Below are positions 3,517-22,224 of a stretch of 64,000 bases of DNA, piece by piece (the stretch's first letter is position 1; each line of letters starts with the position of its first letter). The stretch spans positions 38,672 to 102,671 of the forward strand of contig CATYVH010000004.1 of NCBI GenBank assembly GCA_958413765.1, given 5' to 3'. Source of the stretch: an uncultured Collinsella sp. GTDB lineage: Bacteria; Actinomycetota; Coriobacteriia; Coriobacteriales; Coriobacteriaceae. Made by a program: the position numbers and the translations under genes. Under the pieces are notes generated by a model. That model searched no databases, had not been told where the DNA came from, and saw only the letters and a list, made by a program, of their open reading frames with translations.

Positions 3517-4248
3517 TCACGCCATAGGCCTCGGGTGGCCAAAAGCGTCTGCAACGTCGAGCATCTCAAAGTTGGCATCCCAGCTGTCAAAGATACGATG
3601 CACCAACACCGCGAGTTCCTCGGCACACAGCAGGGGAAACGGCGCATCTGCCGCACCCTGAAGCGCGACCGACCCGCCCGAGCATGCCTCGAACAACGGC
3701 ATCAAAAATGGGTCGGTTAATGCCGGCGATGCGGTATACAGATACGGCACGCGCAGGACTTTGGCTTGGATGCCGTCGCGCGATGCATAGTAACGGCACA
3801 GGTCGTTGGCAGCGCGGGCGATAATGCCCTTGCCCGTCTGGGCCCCACTGGCGGCCGTGGCGTCGTCGTCACATCCGCCAGTGGTGCCCTCTGCACCCGC
3901 GGGCCCCGCAATAAACAGCAGCTGCACATTGCGTCCCATACAGGCACGAAACACCGAGCGCAGCAGCCCAATGTCGCCAAAAGTCACGGTATGCGGGGTG
4001 AGGTAGGTAGAAAGGTAGACCACGCGCTCAAACTCGTAGGCCTGGTCCAGGTGCTGGAGGAGCTCTTTCCACGAAGCATGGGGCGACGACTCATCGCGGC
4101 GCGCGTCCTGCGCGGCTACGACCTACACATGGTCGCCGGGGAACGCCTTGGAGCAAAAGTCATCGTTAACATATGCGGTGTTGCCAACAACCAGCACTTC
4201 CACGGCGTTCCCCCTCCCCAAAAATCTACTTTTGCCATAGTCAAACAT
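3517..4248 (-). pseudogene. RmlD-like / NAD-dependent epimerase-dehydratase family gene disrupted by an in-frame TAG (4123-4125) and with a degenerate glycine-rich motif
   Basis: Translating the minus strand from ATG 4248 gives MFDYGKSRFLGRGNAVEVLVVGNTAYVNDDFCSKAFPGDHV-stop-VVAAQD...VVYLSTYLTPHTVTFGDI (compare RmlD WVIHYSTDYVFPG) ...IIARAANDLCRYYASRDGIQAKVLRVPYLYTASP. GNTAYVN replaces GxxGxxG. Confidence 0.5.
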
Positions 4249-4358
4249 GCGTATTGTACGCTGTAAAAGCGAGCCAAGGCGCCTTTAAGGCTGTTTTAAG
4301 AACTTTTTAGAGGATGTGAGAGTGGCAACTCATTCGACTTAGATTCATCGAGGAAATG

Positions 4359-4769
4359 CTATTCACCCTGAAAAGGCACATCGCAATCTACTGACAGCTC
4401 TGCAGGAAGAATGGCAGGCGATGCACATTGCTCTCGCACAGAATCATCAGATGAAAGAAACGGCAACTCTTTGGAATGGCTGGCGATAACCTGCGGAACG
4501 ATTTTGATACCCAAAGCAAGCTCGAACCTAGCGATCGTCTTCAGCGTCATATTGGGCTGAGAATTCAACAGCTTCGAAAGCGACTGAAGGCTCACGCCCA
4601 TACGCTTTGCCAAATCGCTTTTGCTTAAACCCAGACGCTTCATCTCGCGATGAACAATAAACTCGATATCTAGCGCGTGTTCATAAGCGCGTGTTTCGCT
4701 GGTTTCTGTATCGGCGTAAAAATCAGATAAATCTACTTTATTCATTGTGTTCTCCGTTTCGAAAGCCAA
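4359..4769 (-). CDS. XRE-family helix-turn-helix transcriptional regulator (candidate antitoxin)
   Basis: HTH_XRE core LGLSKSDLAKRMGVSLQSLSKLLNSQPNMTLKTIARFELALGI. First gene inside the AT-rich island. 16-nt gap to the upstream small ORF. Confidence 0.7.
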   Translation of the reverse strand: MAFETENTMNKVDLSDFYADTETSETRAYEHALDIEFIVHREMKRLGLSKSDLAKRMGVSLQSLSKLLNSQPNMTLKTIARFELALGIKIVPQVIASHSKELPFLSSDDSVREQCASPAILPAELSVDCDVPFQGE

Positions 4770-4785
4770 GTATAAAAGTCAAGGC

Positions 4786-5127
4786 TCAGATTCCAGAAGT
4801 TGACGTGCTATTCTGGCCGATCATTGTTCGAGCGGTTAATTTCCGCTTAGGGTCTGACAACATTTTCTGGAATTGAGAGTTGTCGGGAGAAGCCGTCAAT
4901 TCCCAAAACGGTCGACCCTTGAGGTCTCTATATTCGACAAGATCATATCCTTCTGCCAAAGGGCACCTCCCATTTCTAGATGAACTTAACTTATAGGTTA
5001 AGTTCATCCATTTAAATACATATAACGAGGTCCAGACAAGATTCCTCTGCCCCAATCGATAAACAAACCAGTCGAGCTTATGCAAAATCCGGAAGTGTGC
5101 GGCATATTCTAGACACGTCAACCACAC
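4786..5127 (-). CDS. Small ORF, possible HigB/RelE-like toxin partner of the XRE regulator
   Basis: 113 aa immediately upstream of the XRE gene on the same strand (toxin-first higBA-like order). Weak resemblance at the C-terminus (GYDLVEYRDLKG vs killer-protein ...VDYEDYH). Low sequence support. Confidence 0.3.
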   Translation of the reverse strand: MWLTCLEYAAHFRILHKLDWFVYRLGQRNLVWTSLYVFKWMNLTYKLSSSRNGRCPLAEGYDLVEYRDLKGRPFWELTASPDNSQFQKMLSDPKRKLTARTMIGQNSTSTSGI

Positions 5128-5446
5128 TGGATAGTGGCAACGCTTCTACCTGCGGGTTCTTTTCATGAAAAGGACGATGTGCTCGAGGGTTCCAAAATTT
5201 GCCGCATGCTTCCGTCGGGCGTTTCCGGAAGTGCGGTGAAAAACCGAGATCGACAGACCAGACCCCTGTTTTAGCCTTCCGCGACCTGCGGTTTTGTTGC
5301 CGAAATTCGGTTTATGCTCGGAGGTTTCCGATTTTTCCCCGCACTTCCGAAAAGCACCCTTAAACCGCGCGTCCCGAAGCGGAAAACCGCCGGATATTTG
5401 TTCTCCCCAAATGAGATCCTTGTTTTGCCTGGCCGAATCTTACATC

Positions 5447-5487
5447 CAAACAAAAAAAGAGGACCGACGCATCAACCCTCTTCAGGT
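5447..5487 (-). terminator. Rho-independent terminator (minus-strand orientation)
   Basis: Minus-strand reading: AAGAGGGTTGATGCGTCGGTCCTCTT followed by TTTTTTTGTTTGG. Confidence 0.5.
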
Positions 5488-5871
5488 GTCGCCCGAAGGC
5501 TTCCAGCGCAATTGATTTAATTCTAATCGATATCACTTGTTTGACCACGATCACGTCAACCAGTAGAAGCCGCCCATGCTCGATCATTCCATTGCCGGGA
5601 TGGTGCTTGGCTAGTACGTCACACATTGCATACATGAAAAAAGGGCAACACTCTCAATTTGAAAGCGTCACCCTTAACGCTCCCAAAGAGCTTTTGTATT
5701 GCAGGAAGATACTCTACACTATCTTCCCTTGATTGGCGGGTCGAAACAGACACCATTGTGATTTCAAGCAGAAAGCGTTATATTAAGTATGCATTTGCAC
5801 GTGGTGTTCGCACTATACGCTCAGATGCCATAGTTTACAAAGATGGCCTTCTTCATAGACGCTAGGTGGGA

Positions 5872-7467
5872 TTACTCACTAGTAGCCGATATGTCGAAGG
5901 CCTTCTTGTACTTAAGGAAATCATACATTCTAATAAGCCGTTTCAGCTCGCTATTACCGTGGATTATCTTGCGATCGTCCGTGATGAGCGCCCTCAGATA
6001 TTCAAGCAACTTATTTAGATCGATCTCATCTTCTTCAAGTAGCACAAGCTTTTTAAATGCTTCCTCAAAGCCTTCGTTAGCTATAACAGACTGAACCGAG
6101 TGTCTAATTCCCGAATGATGATAGCTACCTTTTGCCTTTCGTAGGCTGTTGTTTAGAAAAGCATCTAAATCCTTCTTCTCATCTATTTCCTTTAGCATCC
6201 TTGGATTAAGAACTTCCCCTGAATACGCGCTTAAATACTTATACATGGGCAAACCACCCGAGTTAGAAGCAAGCAGCGAAGGAAGGTATTCCTCGACGGC
6301 AAGCTTAGGAGCAACATGTTCGTCATCAAACACAACATCACGATATAGAAGTTCGGCTTTGACCATATGCCCGTGCCCTAAAGAAGCATTCGCAACACCG
6401 ATACCCAGCACAAGATGCTGTCCCTCCGGAAGTCTCTCGAGGTCGCTAAAACTCGCTTCAACTACCAGAGAGTCATTCGGATCGCCCTCATCAGCCAAGG
6501 CGTAGATGCTCCTGCGAAGCTCACGAATGATCCTGGGCGAGAAGGAGCATTTGGATTGTCCAATTGCTTCATACACTGCACCAAAATCGTTCGTCCTAAT
6601 CTCGGTCATGCTTGTCTCGCCAATACCTGGAAAGGTAAACGAATGAGTTGAGGTTGCGTTTTCTCCCCTAGTAAGGAAGATAAAGCGCTTTCTAAGCAAC
6701 GCAAGATTGTTAGAACCGAGGCAGCGCGAAATCGACATGAGGATAGCTTGGATATCGGGGTCGTTAAGGGAATAACCGATAAAAATAATTGGGTATTCCA
6801 TAAAAATAGTTAACAACTTGGCAGCCAAGTAATCCTGTGTTTCGGCGAGTTTTGCGTAATCTGCCTCCTCAAGAACCATAGATTCAGGATTATCCATAGA
6901 ACCGTGGATCTTATAGATTTCACCCATTTCAAAAGTTCTGTGAAAGACGAGATCGTCTTGGCCAACAAAAACTTTAAACTCGGGAAATAGCGACTCCAGG
7001 AGACAGTCATAGTTGGTTGTTATAACTCCAGAGATACGCCGCCTGCCAACCTCTCTCAAGATATCAAGCTCATGCGTCATATATTCAGGTTTGAACGAGG
7101 ATAACCTCTCGGCCGCCATGATCTTTAAAATAGATTTACGCTGACGAATGTCCTCTACATGATCGTTTCTAAAAGAAGCGAAGCGAGGGTCCTCAAGAAC
7201 AGCTATGCGCATATCCTTATCAAGCATCGTCGCGGCAGAGGGCAATGCGCTATTGTCAGACTCATCTGGACAACGTGCCAGGTACGAGTCAAGCCGAAAG
7301 GGATCATCGGAAAGACGGGAACAGAGGTGCCTTAACAAACCAACCCAATCGTCGGTACCCATGTATCTACGGGAAAAGCCCGAGCCGACGAATAAATATG
7401 GGCTACGCCCCACCCCATTTATCAAACGTACAACGCTTTCTACACTGTCATCTCTTCCGACTTCCAT
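5872..7467 (-). CDS. SIR2-like (SIR2_2 / defense-associated sirtuin) domain protein with an about 230-aa uncharacterised C-terminal domain
   Basis: 531 aa. LFVGSGFSRRYMG, VITTNYDCLLE, IYKIHGSMDNP (HGS catalytic His) and IFIGYSLNDPDIQ are hallmarks of the SIR2_2 family found in ThsA, DSR and other NADase defense effectors. Lies in the AT-rich island. Confidence 0.8.
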   Translation of the reverse strand: MEVGRDDSVESVVRLINGVGRSPYLFVGSGFSRRYMGTDDWVGLLRHLCSRLSDDPFRLDSYLARCPDESDNSALPSAATMLDKDMRIAVLEDPRFASFRNDHVEDIRQRKSILKIMAAERLSSFKPEYMTHELDILREVGRRRISGVITTNYDCLLESLFPEFKVFVGQDDLVFHRTFEMGEIYKIHGSMDNPESMVLEEADYAKLAETQDYLAAKLLTIFMEYPIIFIGYSLNDPDIQAILMSISRCLGSNNLALLRKRFIFLTRGENATSTHSFTFPGIGETSMTEIRTNDFGAVYEAIGQSKCSFSPRIIRELRRSIYALADEGDPNDSLVVEASFSDLERLPEGQHLVLGIGVANASLGHGHMVKAELLYRDVVFDDEHVAPKLAVEEYLPSLLASNSGGLPMYKYLSAYSGEVLNPRMLKEIDEKKDLDAFLNNSLRKAKGSYHHSGIRHSVQSVIANEGFEEAFKKLVLLEEDEIDLNKLLEYLRALITDDRKIIHGNSELKRLIRMYDFLKYKKAFDISATSE

Positions 7468-7974
7468 CTAGCGCCTCCAAACAAGCTACTTCCATAAGTA
7501 TAGAACATATGTTTGGGTTTTACTAGAATTGCAAGACTTCATCGGAGACAAAGCTGCTCGACAATTGAAAATTCGAACCGCACAGGTGACCCAATATTCA
7601 GCAGTGTTCCGACGAGCAAATATTCATTTCGCGCCTCAGGCAATCTAGCGCAGCGGCATCAGTTAGAACGCCATGACTCTCTAGGAGTTCGATAAGTTGA
7701 GCGAAAGTCTAAAATTCCATCGCCAAAGTAACTCCTAAAATCAAAGGGCCGTTGCCGATAACAACCAAACAACGACCCTCCTTTGTCATCGCCTCACGTA
7801 GAGCCCACGACAACTGCATCACTAACTGGATGTTAACCTAGATGCACAGTAATTGCGCATCCAAAAAAGTTAATCATGTAGCAAATACTCTTCGCGTTGA
7901 AACTAATGCGAAGCATTTTCGCGTCCGTGCACGAGAATGCGCAATCAATATGCGGAAAGGCAAAGATGATTCAC

Positions 7975-9384
7975 CTAGCTAACAACCATCCAGTCACTAC
8001 CGACAGTACTCGAAATCTTCGAGGAATCGCCGATGCACACGATGGTCGCCGAAGCGCCGGGCACATACTTGGCCTCAAGAACGGAAACACCTTGCTCCTT
8101 AAGCCTTAAGGTCGTCTCGGTTATCTGGGTTTTATTCACATCATTTTTGCTGACCAGTTTAACGCCATTGCCATCATTTTCATTCAGGCAGGATACAACC
8201 GTATTGTAATCGGCCCAATAACAGTACTCCCCAGAAAGCCATCCAAGCTCAGTGGCGCATATCGATCCAGTCGCAGAAACCGTCTTTGGAAGCAATCCGT
8301 AGCGCTGCCTTTCCTCAAATTCAAGAACATCGCAAAATACGCGATTAGCATTAAGTAATCTCGTTCCACAATAGTCCCCGTAAAACGGCGCAAAATGATT
8401 GCGGATAGTCCGCGACAACATACAGTAATCGTAGGTGTAGTAACACTTGAAGATTCGTAGGGCGTCTCCCCCTGCCCCTTCGGCAGAACGGGCGAATTCA
8501 ACAAGAAACTGGTCCCACATGCGCTCAATATAGGGAATTGCGAGTTTAACGCTATCCATATCAGACAAAGGAGCATCGCTCGTCTGCTGCATTATTCCAG
8601 TGGTTTTTGCCAAATGGAAATGAGCTGCCATGCGCTCGATCGTTCGGATAAACTCGGGCCGATTCCCGTCCTCAATCGCCATAATTGCAAAGAAAACACT
8701 TCTCAACAGAAGATCACTTGAAAATCGCTGAGGTAAGAGATCGCCATATTCGCGCTCGTATGAGAAGAGCCTGGCCTCACCCGTATCGATTGAAGAGTAA
8801 CCAAATACGGAGTCCGAAGGAACGACATATGATGGAGCGGCATTTGAGTACACACGGCTAAACTTAATTTGATAACGCTTAAAAAAGGTTGAAATCCAAA
8901 AGGTCACAACACCAAATAATGCCAGCTCAAACTCAAAGGCAATACTCGAAGTATCAAGCACATCTAGCCCCTGGCCTCCGAGATAGCCATCGATAACAAA
9001 GTGATCGAATGCGACGGACAGCAAAAGAGACATGAACGCCTCGAATGAGAAAGGAAGAGTCCGGTACCGCAATTTACCCCTTGCATGCTTGATTACCCCA
9101 AGAAACAACCAATAGAAAAGGGTAGGCATGTATCGCAGCGAAGGACCTGGAACTGAAAACGCATCGCAAATCGCAGCCATAATAAACACCGGGAGCTGGC
9201 AACAAATTGTTGGAGCGAGAATTCGGTAGGCAACGTTCAGCCTGCCCGACTCATCGGAGGGATACAGTTCTTCGACGGTGTATTGCCCTCCGATCGCCAA
9301 GGGCCCAGCAAAGCGGACAAGCTGAACGCTCGACAAACCGATAAAGACATAAAAGACAATCCAATGAATAGTGACCGATTCCAC
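7975..9384 (-). CDS. Membrane protein (about 5 N-terminal TM helices plus an about 290-aa soluble domain), unknown function
   Basis: 469 aa. Hydrophobic segments IHWIVFYVFIGLSSVQLV, VFIMAAICDAF, LFYWLFLGVI, FMSLLLSVAF and ALFGVVTFWISTFF. No recognisable catalytic motif. Island gene upstream of SIR2 on the same strand. Confidence 0.65.
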   Translation of the reverse strand: MESVTIHWIVFYVFIGLSSVQLVRFAGPLAIGGQYTVEELYPSDESGRLNVAYRILAPTICCQLPVFIMAAICDAFSVPGPSLRYMPTLFYWLFLGVIKHARGKLRYRTLPFSFEAFMSLLLSVAFDHFVIDGYLGGQGLDVLDTSSIAFEFELALFGVVTFWISTFFKRYQIKFSRVYSNAAPSYVVPSDSVFGYSSIDTGEARLFSYEREYGDLLPQRFSSDLLLRSVFFAIMAIEDGNRPEFIRTIERMAAHFHLAKTTGIMQQTSDAPLSDMDSVKLAIPYIERMWDQFLVEFARSAEGAGGDALRIFKCYYTYDYCMLSRTIRNHFAPFYGDYCGTRLLNANRVFCDVLEFEERQRYGLLPKTVSATGSICATELGWLSGEYCYWADYNTVVSCLNENDGNGVKLVSKNDVNKTQITETTLRLKEQGVSVLEAKYVPGASATIVCIGDSSKISSTVGSDWMVVS

Positions 9385-9867
9385 CTGTAAACAATCTCCT
9401 CAGGTCATACGCTTGCGATTAATTGTAGATAGACAGAATTGAACAGGAGGCAACAATATTTGAAACTGTTGTTTTGCGCACCCCGGATCAACCAACATAC
9501 CCCAGAAAGGTCGCTGATGTTGACTGGGGTTCCCGTAAAACCCCAACAAAAAATGTGCGGAGTGCCGGCCTGAAACTGCCTTCGGACCCTATTGGCTGCA
9601 CACCGAGAGGCTCCGCTATGAAACGCCCCCTTTACCACCCGCTCTGTGCGACCGCGTGCACGTCCATGGTCAACGCGACGATGCCTATGGCAGCCATTGC
9701 AGAGGGGGTTCAGCCTCAGAAGGCCGCCGAGCAGCAGGCGCAAGCCGTGAGGTCGAGCTCAGCGTTGCTTTTGAATGCAGAAAAACGAGTCCGAACGCAG
9801 CGGCGTCCGGTCCTCTTGGCAGGTCCCATCTTGGGTTGATGTCCACAAAACTAGCCCTTGCGGTCGG

Positions 9868-10686
9868 TTAAACAAGTTTCAGCAGCCTTTGATACTCTCC
9901 GGGATCACGCATACGCATAATATCCATGTATGTTCTGCTTTTTGCGACCATGATATCGTCGAACTTGGATAGGCCGTGCCCGCTCGCTCTTGTGACAACC
10001 ATGCGGTCGTCGCAAAAATATGAAAGAAAGGTGTCCTTGCCGGGATGGTGTATCCGTCGGACGTCGAGCACGTTCCGGAAGTCATAGTAAAGTGCGGCGT
10101 TGGCGGTTTCCTCAAGTTCAGGCAGTCTGTCGATGCCTTCAAAGCGGCAAGGATAAATTAGCAGCAAGTTTTTCGAATGACTGATTGAGCGAAGAAGTCC
10201 TCGGGCCTCACGGTCTTCTTCGCTCAATTGTTTATTACTCTCAGTTTTTATAAGCTCGTCAAGCTTGGCGAGGCTGTAATCCCTGAGAATTGCATGCAGG
10301 CGTAAGCCTCTCTGTTCTTTTACATGACTTCTGCAAAGTTGTTCTAAAGTTATTCCGCGGTCTGAAACTCGCCTTGACGAAGTGAGACTTACGGCGCGCA
10401 TCATGGATTTTCCGAAGATGAGCTTGAAATCTAACTGATACGCGTCTGATACCGCATCACACTCCCCATTTGCCTCGGATACGGGCGCATGAAACTCCGC
10501 ACCTCTGGTCAGTTCCTTGAAAGCGTTAGAGTGGTTGATGAGCTCGCGCGTCCATTCCTCGTATGTATATAACGGACGCCCAGAATAGTCTTGCATGAGG
10601 TCCTTAACAAACAATTCTGGGGTAATCATTGCGGATTTAAGTCTCTCGGCTCCGGGAACGGCTTCAATAAGCCTCTTATCTATCAC
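9868..10686 (-). CDS. Hypothetical protein (272 aa), no recognisable domain
   Basis: Long ORF in a low-GC context with codon usage similar to its neighbours. Located between the RT and the TM protein on the same strand. Confidence 0.55.
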   Translation of the reverse strand: MIDKRLIEAVPGAERLKSAMITPELFVKDLMQDYSGRPLYTYEEWTRELINHSNAFKELTRGAEFHAPVSEANGECDAVSDAYQLDFKLIFGKSMMRAVSLTSSRRVSDRGITLEQLCRSHVKEQRGLRLHAILRDYSLAKLDELIKTESNKQLSEEDREARGLLRSISHSKNLLLIYPCRFEGIDRLPELEETANAALYYDFRNVLDVRRIHHPGKDTFLSYFCDDRMVVTRASGHGLSKFDDIMVAKSRTYMDIMRMRDPGEYQRLLKLV

Positions 10687-11250
10687 TGTGGCCTCCTCTT
10701 TGCGGTAGTTTTACGGATGTTGACGGAAGCCGTTCCAGCAGGGTACGCCAAAGTTGGCCGAGCGAGCGGCCCGTCCTGGCTCGGAAGGGTCCGTGCCTTC
10801 GCCTAGAATACGCGCACCATGGCGCGTTCAGGCCGCTTTCGGGGTTATCCTGGCCGTTTCCATGGCAACCTCGCGCTACTTCTCGGAGAGGAAGATGGCC
10901 GAGTTGCACGACGCGGCGCTGCGAAGGGGAGCATCGTGCTGTCGTGACTGGGCCGAGCTGGAAAAGACTGCCGGGAAGATGGTCGAATCCAGCCTTGAGC
11001 TTGCCGACAGAGTGGAGTCGGCCTAGGATATCGATAGATTCCGGATCCTGGACACAGGGGCCAAGGAGTCCATTACACCAACTTTCGCGACACTACCGTT
11101 CTTGTCATATCATTCTGATGTTCGGCTCGAGTTTCAGAGGCATCGTTCCGCGACCGCGTGAAGGCACATCAATTGTTACCTAGTGATCGGAATTGGCCGA
11201 TATCGATTTAGTATTTATGGCTATGAATAATCCAGCGCTAAAGCCATCGT

Positions 11251-12705
11251 TTACTGAGCACTCAAGCGTTTAATCTTCCTATAAATCTTAGCCTCGTCGG
11301 GGGCAATCGGATCATTTGGAAACGCCTTTTGGGCTCTCGCTACGTAGGAAAGAAAGTTCCCATAGCGAGAAAATGCAGAAGGGTCAGCATCACCCGAGGG
11401 GCATAGCCTTCTTCCCTTAATACCGAGTGGTGAATAATGTTGATATAGAGCGGAGACGCGCTTTTTTGATGCGTGTCTCCCCTCTCCCTCATTAGAACGC
11501 GCAATCGCAGTGGCCGCCTCACGGAGACGCTTATGGTACCTTCCAACCGTAGACTGTCGAAGTCTTACAACGCGCCCGTCAAAGTCAAACCCCAGGAAAC
11601 TGACTTTCTGCGCCGGATGTACACCGGAGTACGGATAGACCTTACCCGCACGACCGCTTTCAAAATCAAGCTGAGCAACTCCGCCGCCATCAACCCGGAA
11701 CACCTTGGTTTTCTCAGGCTGCAGTTTAACGGAATCAACATCGGCCATGAGATTGATGGCCTCTACAAGTGCATCAAAGCCAGACTTTGGAACGGCAATA
11801 ATAAAGTCATCGCAATAACGAAGATACAAACCGCCAACCCGTTCGACGGCAAGCCTGACTTTCATGTCGATATCGGCCATATAGATGTTAGCGAGCACTC
11901 CGCTTGCGGCAAGACCCTGAGGAATTCCCAGCCCAATACCCGTTCGCTTCCACGGCCTGGTGAGGACCTTACTTTTGTTTGCAAGAAACTCAGACTTTGG
12001 CAAGATGACATCCAGCTTATTAAGTTCGCGAATAGACTTGAACCGGAGCTCGATAGCTGCATCGCTGATCATTTTCTCCCGAGTAGGATCGATTGCTGGC
12101 CATGGCAATTCATGTCGAGCAGCCAAATCGGCAATAGGCCAGCACGAATAGCGAAGGATATTTTTAATGACTTGATAGTGATCGTCCGGCAAGCGTCCAC
12201 TGGGAAACAATGAACGCAACGACGTCATTAGATGGACATGATTTAAGTTGTCGAAGAAGCTCTCGAAATCACCCGTAAGCACAAAAGCCGAATCTTGCTC
12301 GCGTATATAATCGAAGGCCATTTTAGCTGAGGAAATATTGCTGACAGCAGTTACGGCGCCGCATGATGAAAGCGAAGAGCGGTACGCCACGGCAACCTCA
12401 TTAAACTCTTCGGCAATAGCCTTCTTGTTATATAAGTCCGACCAAAGATAAGAGTAGTACTGGAAGACGCGGTGATCGAAATGCGAGGCATATGCGATAT
12501 TGCGAACCTTGCAGCTTCGCTTACCTCCACGATACCGAACAGCAATGATCTCGTTGGAAATTAAAGGGTAGAACGCGTGGTGAGAAACGTACTCTGAATC
12601 TAAGATCTTGGTCTGAGCTTCGGCAAAAGAAACCCTATGATCAAAATGGGCATATGAACTTTTGGAACTATATCGAGGAATACGAGTGCTATCGAACTCG
12701 GCCAA
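11251..12705 (-). CDS. Stand-alone reverse transcriptase (defense-associated / Abi / UG-type, no maturase or endonuclease domain)
   Basis: 484 aa. RT motifs: KVRNIAYASHFDHRVFQYYSY (motifs 1/2), FESFFDNLNH (motif 3), GIPQGLAASGVLANIYM (motif 4), YLRYCDDFIIAV (YxDD, motif 5), LQPEKTKVF (motif 6), FLGFDF (motif 7). Confidence 0.85.
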   Translation of the reverse strand: MAEFDSTRIPRYSSKSSYAHFDHRVSFAEAQTKILDSEYVSHHAFYPLISNEIIAVRYRGGKRSCKVRNIAYASHFDHRVFQYYSYLWSDLYNKKAIAEEFNEVAVAYRSSLSSCGAVTAVSNISSAKMAFDYIREQDSAFVLTGDFESFFDNLNHVHLMTSLRSLFPSGRLPDDHYQVIKNILRYSCWPIADLAARHELPWPAIDPTREKMISDAAIELRFKSIRELNKLDVILPKSEFLANKSKVLTRPWKRTGIGLGIPQGLAASGVLANIYMADIDMKVRLAVERVGGLYLRYCDDFIIAVPKSGFDALVEAINLMADVDSVKLQPEKTKVFRVDGGGVAQLDFESGRAGKVYPYSGVHPAQKVSFLGFDFDGRVVRLRQSTVGRYHKRLREAATAIARSNEGEGRHASKKRVSALYQHYSPLGIKGRRLCPSGDADPSAFSRYGNFLSYVARAQKAFPNDPIAPDEAKIYRKIKRLSAQ

Positions 12706-13604
12706 AATACCCCCAAATAAATCAACCTGTCCGGATCAACAAGCGGCGGCTAACCCTCCCCGGACAGGCTAATTAAAGGCGCAGCAAGTGCAACCAACGC
12801 TTTCGCGGCCACCTAAAACAATGATTGCCTATGTCATACTAGACGAAAGCGAGGAATTGGTACTTATGACCATCGAAGCCCTTATCCAGCTAGCCGCAGG
12901 CAACGCTGGCGTCAATGTTGCGAACGTCGAAATTTCGTCGTTTGCTATATTGACGGCAGTAGCGTACCCCATCGCCAATTCGCGATGGGCCGGTTTGTTT
13001 ATTCCCCATTCATGGGTCGATTAAACAGATTATGAGAAATAGACTCACGCAGTGAATAACGCCCTGCTGCAAATCCGGATGCGTTGATGTCCAGAATAAA
13101 GGCCAGAGTAATGCGACAAGGGGGCGAGTTCATCGATTCACCAGTGCACTTGCTGTCGACCATGGCGCACAGCGGGACAGATCGATACTGGAGCGAAGTC
13201 TGCCGAGCTCGAAGCCATAGTTGGGAGAATCGTCCGCGACAACAATGCGTCCGCGTGCTCGAAATCGATGGACACACGCCTGGACGTCGCAGCGCTTGTT
13301 ATCGAGGCGGGCGGCAACCCCGAGCGCAAACAATCCGAGACATCGTTCACGAGACTACGCGTGCCAGCTTGATTGAGGCTTTCTGCGACATCTGCCATCA
13401 GCGACAAAGAAAATAGAGAGACGAAGCACACGACGGCAAAAAGTACCCATGAAGTCTGTCTTGACGGAGTCGAGAAAGTTGATATCACGGATTGACAACC
13501 ATAGGGGCGCATTTCGCACAACCGCGCAATCTCGCGCGAGGATGTTTGACAAACAGTGGAATATATGATTCGGCCCATAAACCACAACATAGAAAGGTAA
13601 CGAC

Positions 13605-13802
13605 ATGGACCAAACGACCCGGCAATATCTGGATTCTCTGCTTGCGACTGCGCTACCAAACGGAAAGGCGTTCGTAAGGCGAGAGGATATGCCCCTAGCA
13701 AACAAGCTCATAGATCTCGGAGCCGCTTATAATCGCATCGAGTATGCAGACTTGAGCGGGAATTGTTGGATACAGCTCAGGAACTCGGCGCGATTCTTAT
13801 AA
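13605..13802 (+). CDS. Small ORF (65 aa) with RBS GAAAGG, hypothetical
   Basis: gaaaggtaacgacATG context. Only a plausible small gene, in an otherwise non-coding stretch upstream of the RT. Confidence 0.25.
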   Translation: MDQTTRQYLDSLLATALPNGKAFVRREDMPLANKLIDLGAAYNRIEYADLSGNCWIQLRNSARFL

Positions 13803-13825
13803 ACCAACCGTCAACGTTTCAAATG

Positions 13826-13862
13826 CAAAAAATCGGTCCCTCGAGACTCCTCGAGGGACCGA
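13826..13862. terminator. Bidirectional rho-independent terminator (terminates the rfbCD transcript on the minus strand)
   Basis: Perfect hairpin TCGGTCCCTCGAG-ACT-CCTCGAGGGACCGA. Minus-strand reading is followed by TTTTTTGCATTTG. Confidence 0.75.
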
Positions 13863-13866
13863 TTCA

Positions 13867-15324
13867 TTACACGAGCGTCTTGAGGTACTCCCCCAGCTCT
13901 TCCTCCCAGTCGGGCATGTGGAAGCCGACCGACTCGAGCCTGGACAGGTCGAGCGCGGAGTGGACCGGGCGCGGGGCGACGGGGCCGGCGGCATTCGCGT
14001 AGTAGTCGGAGGTGCTGACCGGCACGACCCTGTCGCCGTTGCCGTTGGCGTCCTCGAAGACGGCGCGGGCGACGTCGGCCCAGCTCTTGACGGCGCCGGA
14101 ACCCGTGCAGTCGTAGGTGCCGTAGGGGGCGTGCGTCCCCAGCACGTGGAAGATGGCCTGCGCCATGTCGCGGGTGAAGGTCAGGCGGCCCAGCTGGTCA
14201 TCCACGACGGTGACCTTGTCCAGCTTGTCCTCGGGGTCGGCGACGCGGTCGGAGAGCGCCTTCATGGTCTTCACGAAGTTGTGCCCCTCGCCGATGACCC
14301 AGGAGCTGCGCATGATGTAGTGGCGCGGGCACCCGGCCACGGCGATGTCGCCGGCGGCCTTGGTCTGGCCGTAGACGGACAGCGGGCTGAGGGGCTCGTC
14401 CTCGGTATGGACCTCGGCGGTGCCGTCGAAGACGTAGTCGCTGGACACGTGGACCAGCGTGATGCCGTGCCCGGCGCAGGCGCGGGCGAGAAGCGCCGGG
14501 CCGGTGGCGTTGGCCTTCCATGCAATCACGCGGCCCTCGGGGGTCTCCGCTCTGTCCACGGCGGTGTAGGCGCCGCAGTTGATGACGGTGCCGTAGAGCG
14601 ACCAGTCGTACTGCGCGTAGGCCTCCGGGTCGGACATGTCGAAGGTGTCGATGTCGCAGAAGTCGAAGTCCTTGGCGACGCCGCGCTCCTCGGCCAGCGC
14701 GCGCACAGCATGGCCCAGCTGGCCGTTGCAGCCGGTGACGAGCGTGCGCTTGGGCGCCATCGGGACGACGTCCTTCAACATCGGGTGGTTTTTGTCCGCC
14801 TCGGAGACGGTGGCCCGGTCCAGCGGGATCGGCCACTCGATGGCGAGCTCGGGGTCGGCGAGGTTCACGAAGGTGTAGGTCCTCTTCAGCTCGAGGGACC
14901 AGTGGGCGTCCACCAGGTAGGTGTAGGCGGTGCCGTCCTCCAGCGCCTGGAAGGAGTTGCCCACGCCGCGCGGGACGTAGATGGCCTTGGAGGGGTCCAG
15001 CACGGTCGTGTAGACCTTGCCGAAGGTGGCGCTGCCCTCGCGCAGGTCCACCCAGGCGCCGAAGACCGAGCCGCGGGCCACGGAGATGAACTTGTCCCAG
15101 GGCTCGGCGTGGATGCCGCGTGTGACGCCGCGGCTGTCGTTGTAGGAGATGTTGTTCTGGACGACGCGGAGGTCGGGGATCCCGAGTTCGGTCATCTTGG
15201 CGCGCTGCCAGTTCTCCTTGAACCAGCCGCGCGAGTCGCCGTGGACGGCCAGGTCGACGACCTTGAGGCCCTCGATGCCGGTCTCGGCGACCTTCAGGTC
15301 CTTCTCGAATGCGATGTCAGCCAT
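13867..15324 (-). CDS. rfbCD: Bifunctional dTDP-4-dehydrorhamnose 3,5-epimerase / dTDP-4-dehydrorhamnose reductase (RfbC-RfbD fusion)
   Basis: N-terminal half is RmlC-like (GDSRGWFKENW..., cupin). C-terminal half is RmlD-like (TLVTGCNGQLG..., VHVSSDYVFDG, YGQTK). Confidence 0.9.
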   Translation of the reverse strand: MADIAFEKDLKVAETGIEGLKVVDLAVHGDSRGWFKENWQRAKMTELGIPDLRVVQNNISYNDSRGVTRGIHAEPWDKFISVARGSVFGAWVDLREGSATFGKVYTTVLDPSKAIYVPRGVGNSFQALEDGTAYTYLVDAHWSLELKRTYTFVNLADPELAIEWPIPLDRATVSEADKNHPMLKDVVPMAPKRTLVTGCNGQLGHAVRALAEERGVAKDFDFCDIDTFDMSDPEAYAQYDWSLYGTVINCGAYTAVDRAETPEGRVIAWKANATGPALLARACAGHGITLVHVSSDYVFDGTAEVHTEDEPLSPLSVYGQTKAAGDIAVAGCPRHYIMRSSWVIGEGHNFVKTMKALSDRVADPEDKLDKVTVVDDQLGRLTFTRDMAQAIFHVLGTHAPYGTYDCTGSGAVKSWADVARAVFEDANGNGDRVVPVSTSDYYANAAGPVAPRPVHSALDLSRLESVGFHMPDWEEELGEYLKTLV

Positions 15325-17353: not shown

Positions 17354-18769
17354 CTATCGCTGCTTCTTAAGTTTGGTCAAACATGAAGCAACGCTTTTCA
17401 GCGCAGAATGATTGAGCAAGAGATAGCCAACGTAGACTAATGCATACAGAATCGCCGCAGTTCCACCAGATAAAAGCTCAGCGAACAAGACGAAAGCGAC
17501 TGTAAGCAGGATCTCCTGAAACGGCCTAGTTGAACCCGGGGCGCAAAGCTGTTCGTTCAGATAGAGCTCGGACCACAACGACCTGCCAATAATGCAGATA
17601 ACGGCGCCACACAGGACGGCGTCGAGCGAGTTAAGGACAAGAACACCGAATATCGAAAAAACAGCGCTACAAATAACAGTGACGATATTCAACTTCAGGA
17701 GCAGCTGTTCTTTACGAAGTACCTTGAAATAGGTAGTACAGCAAAGGCTCATCTTTGTATTGAAGACGCATATCGGAAGTAAGAGCGCAAAGTATTTGAG
17801 GCTTTCGGCATATTGAGGAAGCCATATCCCCAAAAACCAAACCATAGGGAAATAGAGTAAATAGATCGCAGGGAAAATAAGCTCGATAGAATTCCTTATG
17901 CCAATGTAAAAACGAACCCTCTCATCTTCAGAGCCTGTCCTAAGGGCAGGAAATAAAACCATACTCGCCTGTGAGACGAAGGTGATGAAGAAATTCACCA
18001 GAGAGAGGGAGAACGAAATTTTTGCAAAGGCGACGATACCCCAAAAATGATCGATAAGAAACCTAGATACCCCGAGGATTAGTGTGTCGGCGATGTTCGC
18101 AATCATCAGCTTCACGCCGACGATGATACTGCGGATGCCGTCCTTAAGCGAATTGCCAAAAGACACTGATTTAGCGCGTAGGATATCCCTGCCCATCCAA
18201 GAGCAATATATGAGCGCAATAATTTTCGAAACGAGATACGCGTAGACATAGGGATGGTAGTCCGAAACCTTAAATCCAATTAAAACAAGGAGCGGAGCCA
18301 GAAACACCAGCCTGTCTAGCATTGTAGAAAACGAAAAAAGCTTAGTTTCGTTCATGGCCTGAAAGACAAAGCCCAAATAACTTGTCAGGTTATATACGAC
18401 GGTGTAAAGCGCGAAAGACGCGATAACAAATAACCGATTTGCATCATCGACGAGAGGCAGCGAAGCCAAAGTGATGCCGAGGCAAATCACTGCCTGGAAA
18501 CAAGCACCGAAGATATACTGGGATTTGATTGAGCTCTTATCGATTTCATCACGAGAGAGACCCCCGTTAATCAGGTAGACACCATCATTCAGGCCAAGGT
18601 GAAAAAAGCCGGAATAGGTCGTATAAAACATGAACAGTTGCCAGTATCCATAATCAGCAACGCCAACGATTTTCGGCACGAGCAGCGACATGACGACACT
18701 GACCGATAGAGAAATAAACTGTGCAGCAAACGCAATCATAGTGTTGCGTGCGATAGACGAATAATTCAT
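17354..18769 (-). CDS. wzx: Polysaccharide flippase (Wzx / MOP-superfamily oligosaccharide translocase)
   Basis: 471 aa, 12-14 predicted TM segments. Low GC typical of serotype-specific polysaccharide genes. Confidence 0.75.
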   Translation of the reverse strand: MNYSSIARNTMIAFAAQFISLSVSVVMSLLVPKIVGVADYGYWQLFMFYTTYSGFFHLGLNDGVYLINGGLSRDEIDKSSIKSQYIFGACFQAVICLGITLASLPLVDDANRLFVIASFALYTVVYNLTSYLGFVFQAMNETKLFSFSTMLDRLVFLAPLLVLIGFKVSDYHPYVYAYLVSKIIALIYCSWMGRDILRAKSVSFGNSLKDGIRSIIVGVKLMIANIADTLILGVSRFLIDHFWGIVAFAKISFSLSLVNFFITFVSQASMVLFPALRTGSEDERVRFYIGIRNSIELIFPAIYLLYFPMVWFLGIWLPQYAESLKYFALLLPICVFNTKMSLCCTTYFKVLRKEQLLLKLNIVTVICSAVFSIFGVLVLNSLDAVLCGAVICIIGRSLWSELYLNEQLCAPGSTRPFQEILLTVAFVLFAELLSGGTAAILYALVYVGYLLLNHSALKSVASCLTKLKKQR

Positions 18770-18802
18770 TCAACCTCGTTTGTTTAAACTAGCAACCTTG
18801 AT

Positions 18803-20044
18803 TTATTCAGAAATCAAAATAGGGCCTGACTCGCACAAATCTGAATACCGAGCACTCGTTCTACCCAGAACGAGTCCACAGGAAACAAACAAGATGACCG
18901 TTGGCACCCACCAACCAAGCTCGCAATAAAACATGAGCTCCGCGCAGCATATGCAGGAAACGGAAAATAGTACTTGATCGAGTTCGCAACCCGACCTGAA
19001 CGAACCGATACCAGCGGAAATTAGCAAGAATACAAAACTACAAATTCCAAGAAAACCATATTCATACAGCATTGCAAGGAAACCATTATCCACCGTTGAA
19101 AAACCGCTAATTTCAACCGTCGTGCCCAGCATAGTCATGCGACTACTGCCATAACCATTTCCAGTAAGCCAAAACAGCGGCCTGCTTAAAAAGCTATGAA
19201 TAATATAGGCAATGGCTCCGGAACGCTGGCTATATGAAACATCAGTTTCAAGCTCACCAAATCGAGAAGCCACAAAGTTAAACAGTCCAAACTTGTAGAG
19301 AATGAAAACGAGTAGCAATACAGCTGGAACTAAAAGCGCAATTAAATTCCATTTAGAATACTCGGGGTTCTTTAGGCGAAAGATCAGGTACACCGATGCT
19401 AAAGCAATGAGAATAATCCACGCGCTACGACTCTTTGTCAGAAGCAGAGCGACCAAAAGAACTACAGAGTATAAGAGACGTTTCATCCTGCCCGTCTCCA
19501 ATTTATAGTTGATTACAACAGCAATAACTATCATTTGGCCAAATACGATTGCATGACCGAAAAAACTACGCAGTCGATACAAGGATGGATTATCAATCGT
19601 TACAGTTTGCAGAAAAGAAAAGGAACCATTTGTAACTAGTCGTTGACCTAAAACAATTTCAAGGACAAAGCTAAATAGGCAGGCGAACACCATAACGTTG
19701 CGAAGCATAAGCAATGCAGACTCAACCCAGTCATCGTTCTTTACTTTGCCGTAAATATAACCAAGAAGGATGCAAAAGAAATACGAGCAGACCGTAAGGA
19801 GGGATTCATTAATGCTTCGGGACGTAAACGCAATGGCAGAAAAGAAAACCATCGCGCCCATAACGACAATGGGAATAGCGTTATTTAAAAACACTTTGTA
19901 GAGGCGCCCAGAAAGAACTTCTTTGAAAACGAGCAATCCTAGAACAGAAAAAAATAGTCCTTTAACGGGAGAAATGACACTTAAGATTGCGGCAAAAATC
20001 AAAATAGTGAATTCATTAGTAAATAGCTCAAGCATTCTAAACAC
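18803..20044 (-). CDS. O-antigen ligase/polymerase-like (Wzy-type) membrane protein
   Basis: 413 aa multi-TM protein. LLLTKSRSAWIILIALASVYL resembles the O-antigen ligase TxSRG motif region. Confidence 0.65.
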   Translation of the reverse strand: MFRMLELFTNEFTILIFAAILSVISPVKGLFFSVLGLLVFKEVLSGRLYKVFLNNAIPIVVMGAMVFFSAIAFTSRSINESLLTVCSYFFCILLGYIYGKVKNDDWVESALLMLRNVMVFACLFSFVLEIVLGQRLVTNGSFSFLQTVTIDNPSLYRLRSFFGHAIVFGQMIVIAVVINYKLETGRMKRLLYSVVLLVALLLTKSRSAWIILIALASVYLIFRLKNPEYSKWNLIALLVPAVLLLVFILYKFGLFNFVASRFGELETDVSYSQRSGAIAYIIHSFLSRPLFWLTGNGYGSSRMTMLGTTVEISGFSTVDNGFLAMLYEYGFLGICSFVFLLISAGIGSFRSGCELDQVLFSVSCICCAELMFYCELGWWVPTVILFVSCGLVLGRTSARYSDLCESGPILISE

Positions 20045-20989
20045 CTACTTACTGTCACAGGAACTGATTAAGACCTTAAAATCACCAAGCAGGGAACGAT
20101 TTGACAGTTCATACTTACGGTATTTTAGAATGGTGCCTAAATCACTTATTTTTAGGCCACCTACGAGCAAGTGCAAACGGGCATTTAAAACAGAACCGTA
20201 ATGCTCTATATGTGAAGAAGTTATACGATAATCGCCAGGATTACTACTGCAGTATTCTTCTAAAACCTTAGAAAATCTCAAGCACATCCCTATCTCAGCA
20301 ACACGAGATTTCTTGTCAATATGTCGCATCTCAGTTGCATTAGAGTCATGCCTGCGGAACCGAATCAAGGGCTGATTTAGAAGTCTGAGAGTCCCCTTCA
20401 GTAATGAGAAGCGCCATAACATACCGTCATGCGCAAAATCATCCTGCCAATATGGCATGATTTCCCTTATAAAACTAGATTTAACGGCATACGAACATCC
20501 AGGGCGCCGTACCGACATAAACTTGCTATCGAAAACCGGGGTCTCCAAATCGTCCAGAGGTTTGGAATCATCGACAGCACCATAGACTGTTACCTTTTTA
20601 CCGCCGCTCTCATAAAACGGCTCGACGGCGCAGCTGAGAACCTCAATCGAGGGGTCCTTCTCGAGGATTGAGGACATCACAGCGATTTTATCGAGTTCCC
20701 AAATATCATCCTGGTCGCACGGGAAGACGATTCCATCGTCTATAGATGCAAGGTCAAGAAGCCGTTTAAAGCTCTTGCGCCAGCCGAAATTCGAGCTGTT
20801 CTTGTTGACGGTCCAATTAGCGAGTGCGTGTTCCTCGATGTATTCGCAGATGAGATCGAACGATCCATCTGTCGAGCAATCATCCGCGATCACCACCCGA
20901 TCCGGAGACACGGTCTGAAGTCGCAAGCTGTCTAGCTGTTCAGTAAGATATCGTGTGCCGTTATAGACTGACATCACAACCGTAACCAT
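20045..20989 (-). CDS. Family 2 glycosyltransferase
   Basis: VVMSVYNGTRYLTEQLDSLRLQT...ADDCSTDGS (GT2 DxD context). Confidence 0.85.
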   Translation of the reverse strand: MVTVVMSVYNGTRYLTEQLDSLRLQTVSPDRVVIADDCSTDGSFDLICEYIEEHALANWTVNKNSSNFGWRKSFKRLLDLASIDDGIVFPCDQDDIWELDKIAVMSSILEKDPSIEVLSCAVEPFYESGGKKVTVYGAVDDSKPLDDLETPVFDSKFMSVRRPGCSYAVKSSFIREIMPYWQDDFAHDGMLWRFSLLKGTLRLLNQPLIRFRRHDSNATEMRHIDKKSRVAEIGMCLRFSKVLEEYCSSNPGDYRITSSHIEHYGSVLNARLHLLVGGLKISDLGTILKYRKYELSNRSLLGDFKVLISSCDSK

Positions 20990-21006
20990 TAAAAACCTTC
21001 GTCCAA

Positions 21007-22224
21007 TTAAAGTTCAGCCATTAGCTGATCGTAAATATTGATAAGACGTTCAACATACGCGATCTTTTTGAGATGGCTAAAGTCCGCCTTCTCAACTGCC
21101 TCCCTGTAACGCGAGTAAACATCAGAATCGAGCATATTGACCATTGCGTCAGATAGCGACTCCACACTACCTGCGTTGAAGATCTCGCCGAGACCTTTTG
21201 ACATCACAAAGGAGGCCGCATCGCCGACATCCGAAACAATACATGGCAGGCCGGCGGCAATCATTGCTTCATAAGCGACGAGCCCGAACGTCTCTCGCCA
21301 AACAGAAGGCATGACGATAGCGCGAGATTGTTTCATGACGGAAAGAACTTCATCATGAGGCAAGGAGCCCATGAATCTGATATCTGGATAGCTATCCGAC
21401 AACCTCTTCAATTCGGTACCGTCGCCAATGACGATCGCATTCACGCCCGCCCGACAGGCCGCTTCGCAAAACAAGTCACAGCCTTTCTCTGGACTTAAGC
21501 GGCCGACGAATAGGTATGCCGAAGAATCTCCTTCGGAATCATCTTGAAACTTAGCCGCATCAACATAGTTTAAGCAGTCATACCGTTCAGAATTCCACGC
21601 TAGATGAGGTTCGATCAATCGACGGCTGGAGTCGGAGACAAAGGCGACCGCCGGGCGAAGCGAGCCTAAGACATGGTTCTGCACGGAGAAACGAACGGAC
21701 CGGTACAATTTTTGGGCATACGAGCGCTTGTCACAGTTGTGCAGCAGGCACTTCGAAGAACCGGGAGCGATTCCGCAGTTACAATGATTCACATAGTCGT
21801 AGAGCCCACCGTTAGAGCAAACAAGGAAGTACTCATGGGCAGTAATGAGACATTTGAAGCCCCGTCGCTCTATTGCCCTGAATATAGAGGGAGAAAGGGA
21901 GTGCGTCCAAGAATGCACATGAACGACCGCCGTTTCTGGGTCAAGCTGATTGAGCAAATCATCCAGCGCCGTTTCCGAGCGTCGGTTCCAGATGCCCTGA
22001 ACAGCACCAGAGACGCCACCGTTCAAGACGTCGCCCTGCCCGCAATTAACGCAAATAACCCCCGATTCGACCAAAGCCGGATCGGGATCTCCCAGCGCTG
22101 AGAAGAAATAGCTGTTAAGCCCCATCTTTGCCAATGCCGAAGCTGTCTCGATTGCGATTTTTGAAGCTCCACCCCCGATATGGGGACGGTCGCAAATCGT
22201 AATCGCTGTGGTAAGGCTACTCAT
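21007..22224 (-). CDS. Family 4 (GT-B) glycosyltransferase
   Basis: C-terminal FMGSLPHDEVLSVMKQSRAIVMPSVWRETFGLVAYEAMIAAGLPCIV is the classic GT4 EX7E region. Confidence 0.85.
   Translation of the reverse strand: MSSLTTAITICDRPHIGGGASKIAIETASALAKMGLNSYFFSALGDPDPALVESGVICVNCGQGDVLNGGVSGAVQGIWNRRSETALDDLLNQLDPETAVVHVHSWTHSLSPSIFRAIERRGFKCLITAHEYFLVCSNGGLYDYVNHCNCGIAPGSSKCLLHNCDKRSYAQKLYRSVRFSVQNHVLGSLRPAVAFVSDSSRRLIEPHLAWNSERYDCLNYVDAAKFQDDSEGDSSAYLFVGRLSPEKGCDLFCEAACRAGVNAIVIGDGTELKRLSDSYPDIRFMGSLPHDEVLSVMKQSRAIVMPSVWRETFGLVAYEAMIAAGLPCIVSDVGDAASFVMSKGLGEIFNAGSVESLSDAMVNMLDSDVYSRYREAVEKADFSHLKKIAYVERLINIYDQLMAEL

Follow-up and report, generated by a model that had tools for sequence, protein, structure and literature searches.

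The DNA analysed here, hereafter the window, is a 64,000-nt stretch of contig CATYVH010000004.1 (positions 38,672-102,671) from an uncultured Collinsella sp., and unprefixed coordinates are counted within it. On its minus strand, positions 12990-11251 probably constitute a complete anti-phage module of the DRT2 type that works by the neo mechanism, in which a reverse transcriptase (RT) would copy part of an adjacent non-coding RNA (ncRNA) into repetitive complementary DNA (cDNA) encoding an endless protein, Neo. The ncRNA is followed 15 nt later by the RT gene on the same strand. This places a complete and apparently intact predicted DRT2/neo system in an actinobacterium common in the human gut, Collinsella, at a locus where the neo template is invisible to gene callers and the RT is named merely "reverse transcriptase domain-containing protein". 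The ncRNA, template, junction and Neo peptide are thereby given precise coordinates that can be tested. The parts of the module are:

12706-12990, minus strand: DRT2 non-coding RNA, about 285 nt; ends approximate, the 5′ end being taken from the start of the first hairpin
11251-12705, minus strand: DRT2-type RT gene encoding 484 aa from a TTG start (12705-12703), with a YCDD active site
12714-12710, minus strand: GGGGG ribosome-binding site of the RT, upstream of the TTG start

A genome scan with one genome per species gave 123 relatives of the RT, and the analysis is based on the best 80 of these 123, all of which come from Collinsella or other Coriobacteriaceae. By RT identity the 80 divide into 66 close loci at 90-99% and 14 at about 48%, hereafter the 48% family. 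A metagenome scan contributed 80 further relatives among the matches listed, the titled ones being human gut assemblies, and distant RT homologues (33-45% identity) were retrieved singly. Pairs in the RNA were counted over 53 distinct sequences, the RNAalifold consensus was computed from 16, and the template survey covered the 150 loci that have both the -35 and the -10 anchor.

The RT belongs to the DRT2 clade

The original prediction described a stand-alone RT with no other domain and likened it to DRT2/DRT9-type and retron RTs; the protein does stand alone, and it is a defence-type RT of the DRT2 kind. RVT_1 is the sole Pfam family in the protein, which has no extra domain, and the translation contains the YCDD catalytic box. 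The PADLOC Drt2 profile matches residues 14-480 with an E value of 4.8e-110, far ahead of the runners-up UG39 (2e-21) and Drt9 (1e-15); the best PDB matches are the DRT2 RTs 9c0i and 9lje (E 2e-31), and Drt2 is also the top NCBIfam family (E 8.6e-82). By defence-system profiles, membership in the DRT2/UG2 clade is unambiguous. That the protein is instead a retron or group II intron RT is scarcely credible. Weak similarity through the RT domain does exist, both to the group II model (63 bits against a cut-off of 300, E 2.3e-17) and to retron models (1e-8 to 1e-11; retron St85, 8.9e-11), but these scores fall far under the Drt2 score and under the models' own cut-offs. In addition, Pfam finds no maturase or endonuclease domain in the protein, and a scan of 9000-14500 against Rfam 15, at E values up to 1, returned neither an intron RNA nor a retron RNA.

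A conserved, covarying RNA precedes the RT

The roughly 285 nt upstream of the RT are a conserved, covarying, structured ncRNA, as had been proposed in general terms when a structured RNA was predicted beside the RT. Its elements are:

12968-12989, minus strand: 5′ hairpin, SL1-like, CCCATCGC / GCGATGGG; compensatory changes in 5 of 8 pairs
12954-12911, minus strand: long hairpin inside the template (RNAalifold and pair counting)
12908-12819, minus strand: branched domain inside the template (RNAalifold and pair counting)
12808-12813, minus strand: pseudoknot 5′ strand GGUGGC; it pairs with GCCGCC in the terminal hairpin's loop (12750-12745)
12807-12798, minus strand: small scaffold hairpin CGC-GAAA-GCG with a GNRA loop (RNAalifold consensus)
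12795-12778, minus strand: second small hairpin GG.UGCA...UGCGCC (RNAalifold), with one compensatory change from C-G to A-U
12721-12773, minus strand: terminal 15-bp hairpin; helix 12 has 13 pairs, 5 of them with double changes, and 98.8% of its cells are paired

Among the 66 close loci, DNA homology sets in at about 13071, 13012 or 12990, and only about 12706-13071 of the 5′ spacer is conserved along with the RT. In the 48% family some 235-250 nt of the upstream DNA (12982-12746 or 12968-12720) are about 73% identical to the window; the RT proteins are 48% identical, and the DNA-level match of the RT gene itself extends over just 60-100 nt. Thus, the upstream DNA is conserved where the DNA of the RT gene mostly is not, which is the signature of a functional RNA.

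The fold is supported by the pattern of substitutions. Across the 53 sequences, base-pairing is retained in 97.6% of pair cells, compared with 30-44% when the partners are slid by one to three columns, and compensatory changes on both sides occur in 26 pairs, compared with 6-11 in the slid controls; none of 500 shuffles reached these values. Eleven pairs are predominantly G.U, and the fold therefore belongs to the strand of the RT. The folding z-score of the ncRNA segment is -3.46 relative to shuffles. In the pseudoknot 96.8% of cells are paired, the middle pair being U.G in 38 sequences, C-G in 12 and U-A in two, and the 5′ hairpin appears in the 48% family as the compensatory variant CTTTACGC/GCGTAAAG. 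A 9-bp-stem hairpin singled out by the original prediction is real and forms the core of the pseudoknot-bearing terminal hairpin (15 pairs, 12773-12721), its position having been given one base off: the core strands are CCTGTCCGG at 12768-12760 and CCGGACAGG at 12734-12726 (minus strand) around a 25-nt loop, and relatives carry the compensatory variants CCTGCTCGG/CCGAGCAGG and CCCGCTTGG/CCAAGCGGG. A home-made covariance model built from nine proteobacterial DRT2 3′ scaffolds gave a full-length alignment to 12719-12819 (minus strand) in the correct register, but with a score too weak to be significant.

Two further candidates in this region were set aside. A basal stem, CUGCC/GGUGG, that would close the template was dropped: it is a rival of the pseudoknot, which has the better support, and it breaks down in L072, a member of the 48% family. 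The sequence TTCACT-16-CATAAT (13056-13029) was considered as an operon promoter, and its 9/12 match is at chance level for the region. In relatives TACAAT, CATAAT or TATAGT lies 6-8 nt ahead of the 5′ hairpin, and the window has a poor GAATAA.

The template antisense is a stop-free, circularly permuted frame

What the original prediction missed is the template, whose antisense gives a stop-free, circularly permuted open reading frame (ORF), the core of DRT2 action. The relevant features are:

12823-12960, minus strand: template region, 138 nt, with a boundary ambiguity of 1 nt (12961-12824 is equally possible)
12950-12955, plus strand: TTGACG, the -35-like hexamer in the predicted neo promoter, situated towards the cDNA repeat's 3′ end
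12832-12840, plus strand: TGT-CATACT, an extended -10-like element in the predicted neo promoter, situated towards the cDNA repeat's 5′ end
12851-12868, plus strand: GAGGAA ribosome-binding site (12851-12856) and predicted neo ATG (12866-12868), spacing N9
12788-13024, plus strand: mechanically called 78-aa ORF antisense to the ncRNA, the linear "proto-neo" frame, in frame with the stop-free repeat

On the chromosome TTGACG and TG-n-CATACT stand in the wrong order, 109 nt apart. The arrangement TTGACG-17 nt-(TGn)CATACT arises only when two repeats join, and this geometry is the same in all lineages. Repeat length, which is set solely by the positions of the -35 and -10 elements and the 17-nt spacer, is 138 nt in the window, the 48% family, L081, L085 and L086, and 144 nt where a 6-nt insertion is present, this indel among relatives falling inside the template; the distant lineages L087 and L089 have 132 and 153 nt, and every one of these lengths is divisible by 3. 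The unit is 138 or 144 nt, in frame and stop-free in 149 of the 150 loci surveyed. Frame +0 is the sole frame of the six that is stop-free in every lineage, and dinucleotide shuffling leaves it open in 2-15% of trials per sequence.

The signals for expression are similarly retained. The -35 element occurs in all lineages as TTGACG, TTGACA, TTGATC or TTGATG, with -10 equivalents TAAACT (L085), CACAAT (L081), TATAAT (L087) and TACAAT (L089), and the ATG with its upstream purine-rich site is conserved as GGAGAT-N7-ATG (48% family) and GGAGG-N5-ATG (L081, L085). Concatenated, the antisense of the template reads as a stop-free ORF with a predicted promoter that spans the junction. The predicted Neo repeat is 46 aa long, VIAYVILDESEELVLMTIEALIQLAAGNAGVNVANVEISSFAILTA, and the pattern [LIF]AY.IL, M, AG, N, SF, LTA is conserved between families. 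A single-sequence AlphaFold2 model of 3.7 Neo repeats is mostly helical, at a pLDDT of only 48.8 (low confidence).

A second frame of the concatemer is also stop-free in 128 of the 150 loci; it is closed in the 48% family, and its openness is thus probably due to chance. Separately, the plus strand at 12968-12989 gives a terminator-like score for the 5′ hairpin with the CCGGTTTGTT that follows it; such a site would halt a plus-strand transcript of the chromosomal proto-neo just past the template.

Instead of a template RNA, the same DNA could in principle hold the RT's 5′ leader and, on the plus strand, a normal small protein-coding gene, namely the 78-aa ORF (12788-13024). The ORF exists, and its peptide is recognisably conserved between families. 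We regard such a gene as very unlikely because the ORF has neither a conserved start nor a conserved stop (in the 48% family it terminates within the 5′ hairpin), because its ratio of nonsynonymous to synonymous change (pN/pS) is 0.58-1.08 and because it has no protein-family match in Pfam or NCBIfam. Moreover, the opposite strand carries the covarying fold rich in G.U pairs, and conservation reaches well past the ORF into the pseudoknot scaffold.

Microhomology places the predicted template jump

To locate the junction at which template copies would be joined, we slid it at the fixed 17-nt spacer and counted the leading identical bases that the template's 5′ end shares with the RNA directly 3′ of the template. 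The microhomology maximum falls at the same register in every lineage, 5-6 nt past the -35; by this the template spans 12960-12823, to within 1 nt. The microhomologies and the two sites in the window are:

L089: AAUUU/AAUUU
L087: AUUU/AUUU
L081: ACU/ACU
L085 and L086: UAC (UAC/UAC in L085)
48% family: AU (AUC/AUU)
The window's family: ACUGC against AUUGU (ACU/AUU)
12818-12822, minus strand: AUUGU, where the cDNA 3′ end would land; it corresponds to ACA-2
12960-12956, minus strand: ACUGC, putative partner of AUUGU (counterpart of ACA-1)

In lineages other than the window's the identical-base microhomology is 2-5 nt. The cDNA end of the window, 5′-GCAGT-3′, could form three Watson-Crick and two G.U pairs with AUUGU. 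From these alignments we infer both the jump at AUUGU and the predicted position of the junction.

Together with the established RT clade, RNA fold and coding and promoter geometry, this suggests a course of events in which the jump, the phage trigger and the toxicity of Neo are modelled on better-known DRT2 systems. The RT would bind the scaffold and start copying at the template's 3′ end (12823), finishing at its 5′ end (12960). The cDNA's 3′ terminus (...GCAGT) would then re-pair with AUUGU 3′ of the template and prime another round of synthesis, yielding a concatemeric cDNA with junctions ...TTGACGGCAGT/GATTGCCTATGTCATACT... (GGCAGT/GATTGCC, the stroke marking the join); the predicted junction of the 138-nt repeat can also be written ...ATATTGACGGCAGT/GATTGCCTATGTCATACTAG... 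Phage infection would lead to second-strand synthesis, the junction promoter would drive an endless mRNA for a Neo protein made of 46-aa repeats, (VIAYVILDESEELVLMTIEALIQLAAGNAGVNVANVEISSFAILTA)n, and this protein would arrest the infected cell.

Evidence for and against a translated Neo

Several observations weigh against this interpretation. Every step past the folding of the RNA is argued by analogy with K. pneumoniae DRT2 (PMC11100668, PMC12039810), and Neo annotation is difficult in divergent DRT2 clades, where other mechanisms are possible (PMC11100668). The RT scores 275.5 bits against the 390-bit cut-off of the NCBIfam Drt2 equivalog; it is a divergent member of DRT2, and this shortfall agrees with the name "reverse transcriptase domain-containing protein" that NCBI gives to a Collinsella homologue. 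The home-made covariance model scores weakly (6.5 bits, E 0.68), and the Rfam 15 scan of 9000-14500, a check suggested by the original prediction, produced no match of any kind. The trinucleotides ACA-1 and ACA-2 are not conserved around the template, and the window's family has a microhomology of a single identical base with further G.U-compatible positions. Both the CATACT hexamer at -10 and the 9-nt spacing of the ribosome-binding site are mediocre. Among the relatives, the L161 unit is 139 nt long and breaks the frame, and L051 has AAG (Lys) at the neo start, every other distinct repeat peptide having Met there; these two could be decayed copies, sequencing errors, or cases of imperfect start or junction assignment. 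Finally, the pN/pS of template frame +0, calculated in six frames by the Nei-Gojobori method, is 0.58-1.08 and only marginally the lowest, so that selection at the amino-acid level is unusable as evidence. The template has been described as the least conserved part of the DRT2 RNA (PMC12039810).

Some of these points bear on an explanation in which a DRT2-clade RT does bind the ncRNA, but no Neo is translated, either because the cDNA itself is the effector or because jumping or expression differs from that of K. pneumoniae DRT2. The missing ACA motifs, the weak amino-acid-level selection on the repeat, the RT score below the NCBIfam cut-off, the harder Neo annotation in divergent clades (PMC11100668) and the two stop-free frames in most close relatives all speak for it. 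We nevertheless consider it improbable, because a single frame is open across all lineages, lengths remain multiples of 3 through indels over a range of 132-153 nt, a ribosome-binding site and ATG are conserved in the open frame, and the 17-nt spacing of -35 and -10 exists only across the junction. A non-coding cDNA would need none of these coding and promoter features.

Comparison with known systems

The likenesses to published DRT2 loci argue for the neo mechanism in some detail. Table S1 of PMC11100668 gives the ncRNA, cDNA and Neo for many DRT2 loci. In the published ncRNAs, the 5′ part consists of a hairpin (e.g. GCTTTACGCG...GCGTGAAGGG), ACA-1, the reverse complement of TTGACA and then the template; the 3′ part runs from the reverse complement of the -10 through about 11 nt, ACA-2, GCGGC and small hairpins to a terminal hairpin with GCCGC in its loop (PMC11100668). 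The order of elements in the Collinsella RNA is identical, its 5′ hairpin resembles the published ones (GCTTTACGCG...GCGTGAAGGG), its TTGACG has the same place relative to the 5′ hairpin as the published TTGACA, and its pseudoknot arrangement is that of the published ncRNAs (GCGGC ... GCCGC; GTGGC ... GCCAC in Marinomonas).

With K. pneumoniae DRT2 (KpnDRT2) and its proteobacterial kin (Tang et al. 2024, PMC11100668; Wilkinson et al. 2024, PMC12039810) the module shares a single UG2-clade RT with a same-strand upstream ncRNA, a G-Y-GGC pseudoknot strand with GCCGC in the loop of the terminal hairpin, the reverse complement of TTGAC(A/G) a few nt into the template, one stop-free frame antisense to a template whose length is a multiple of 3, and -35 and -10 elements that stand at 17 nt only across the junction, with a ribosome-binding site and ATG downstream. 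It differs in the length of its RT (484 aa compared with about 425 aa) and of its template (138 nt, or 46 codons, compared with 111-129 nt), in having A-Y-U(G) microhomology in place of ACA-1/ACA-2, and in a neo frame that runs through the -35 as TTG-ACG (Leu-Thr) rather than CTT-GAC (Leu-Asp). Its Neo shows no relation in sequence, its -10 takes the extended form TG-n-CATACT, and its host is a gut anaerobe, Gram-positive and high in GC.

Gram-positive DRT2 loci with a predicted Neo are listed in Table S1 of PMC11100668 for Clostridiales bacterium KLE1615, Bacillus gobiensis, Lysinibacillus and Alkalihalobacillus. These are closer in their RT motifs (YAHFD..., DHRxYQYY-like, GDFxxFFDxLxH), have non-ACA jump motifs and repeats of 132-150 nt, and in KLE1615 the neo frame likewise runs through TTG-ACA, whereas their scaffold and Neo sequences are unlike those of Collinsella. 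The 3′ scaffold of L089, whose RT is 33-34% identical to that of the window, is KLE1615-like. In the part of Table S1 covered we found no entry from Collinsella or other Coriobacteriia, which leaves their absence from the table unproven, and literature searches for DRT2 in Collinsella or other Actinomycetota returned nothing relevant. Published work already describes Neo in a range of DRT2 clades, among them Gram-positive ones that lack ACA. The novelty is modest and lies in the jump motif, the 46-aa Neo and the host; this is not a new kind of system.

Telomerase and DRT10, RTs that add repeats from an internal RNA template, provide a more remote parallel, in that their template is bounded by a stem and a pseudoknot and the DNA 3′ end is realigned on a short repeat at the template end. 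Here, in contrast, the template is 138 nt long and protein-coding, compared with 4-8 nt, the RT belongs to a different clade, and a SLATT or other effector gene is absent.

Two cassette types at a possible shared hotspot

The window-type and 48%-type cassettes can occur in the same organism. Collinsella sp. CLA-JM-H32B carries one of each (L036 and L072, respectively) on separate contigs, each with a distinct predicted Neo. Six of the 14 48%-type loci (L067, L068, L070, L071, L073 and L074) lie downstream of a homologue of the rhamnose-gene end found at 13873-14000 of the window, which suggests an insertion hotspot next to the rhamnose genes that both cassette types share.

It is possible, though we hold this more tentatively than the neo mechanism itself and rate it somewhat below even, that the Coriobacteriia clade is a distinct DRT2 sub-type. 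Such a sub-type would be marked by a degenerate A-Y-U-G-Y microhomology that tolerates G.U pairs in place of ACA, by a new family of Neo proteins with 46-48-aa repeats, and by two diverged cassettes (48% RT identity, different Neo) that swap at one rhamnose-gene hotspot and sometimes coexist. If this were true, the specificity of the jump would come mainly from RNA architecture, namely the distance from the 5′ hairpin and the pseudoknot, and not from the ACA sequence. The natural series of non-ACA jump sites should in any case be useful for finding what specifies template jumping.

The spacers outside the module

The original prediction offered both flanking spacers, 12706-13600 on the 5′ side of the RT and 10687-11250 on the 3′ side, as sources of an RNA partner. 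The proximal 285 nt or so of the 5′ spacer bear this out; 13072-13600 does not travel with the RT, and the 3′ spacer holds a decayed remnant of host genes. It is accordingly a remote prospect that either the GC-rich spacer on the 3′ side or the distal 5′ stretch encodes the ncRNA partner. In its favour, both stretches are non-coding by family searches, since Pfam and NCBIfam scans of every mechanically called ORF in the two spacers gave no match, and the 3′ spacer is indeed GC-rich within an AT-rich island, as had been noted: GC content is 0.566 for 10501-11000 compared with 0.49 in both adjoining 500-nt windows. The island is mostly at 0.44-0.49, with one other high window (0.564) at 9501-10000.

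Against it, neither stretch shows excess folding (z -1.07 for the 3′ spacer and +0.07 for the distal 5′ stretch). At least 14 loci lose homology at the stop codon of the RT (11251 or 11256) and many others at 11229-11235 or 11100, and in about half of the 66 close loci it runs on into the next gene. The plus strand at 10870-11026 is what remains of the C-terminus of a 124-aa ORF, still intact in L016 (55% identity, E 6e-15), and about 9555-9710 is what remains of the N-terminus of a 490-aa protein of L016 (81% identity); the 490-aa and 124-aa genes are adjacent and intact at L016:1299-3299. The GC-rich patches are thus relics of a host gene pair that AT-rich cassettes have largely displaced. 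On the 5′ side, 13072-13860 is common to only four loci.

The original prediction also saw no convincing ORF in 12706-13600. Mechanically called ORFs do exist there, but the 78-aa frame is not an ordinary gene, and a 187-aa ORF (13138-13701, minus strand) is interrupted by stops or frameshifts in L012 (87% identical) and L001 (99.6%), two of the four loci that have this stretch, with substitutions evenly spread over codon positions. A 65-aa ORF at 13605-13802 (plus strand) has a protein-like look and no family match.

A piece of about 165 nt, 10941-11105, recurs around the DRT2 cassettes of other Collinsella at differing positions and in differing orientations, in the following copies:

L016:1210-1454
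L027:1300-1405
L057:1569-1730
L065:1458-1623
L066:1395-1560
L067:6496-6616
L015: a 51-nt fragment

The piece comprises the 3′ end of the 124-aa ORF plus conserved downstream sequence. As an RNA partner it was rejected: the dispersed copies give a weak consensus fold (-7.4 kcal/mol), and the piece includes protein-coding sequence, the 3′ end of a gene. Its copies may flag the hotspot's recombination boundaries.

Neighbouring genes

Downstream of the RT, 9868-10686 (minus strand) is a 272-aa ORF and 7975-9384 (minus strand) a 469-aa multi-pass membrane ORF, both without a match in Pfam, NCBIfam or PADLOC. About half of the close loci have the 272-aa ORF behind the RT and the others lack it, so it is probably a separate cassette. 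Further on, 5872-7467 (minus strand) encodes a 531-aa SIR2-like protein (PADLOC candidate defence family PDC-S25, E 2e-142; Pfam SIR2_2). With this protein and the DRT2 module, 4000-13900 looks like a low-GC defence island beside rhamnose-biosynthesis genes. A second low-GC block beside the rhamnose genes spans 17500-25500, with a 471-aa multi-pass membrane ORF (17354-18769, minus strand) at its edge; our guess is that this block is a polysaccharide-synthesis cluster and that the 471-aa ORF is possibly a flippase.

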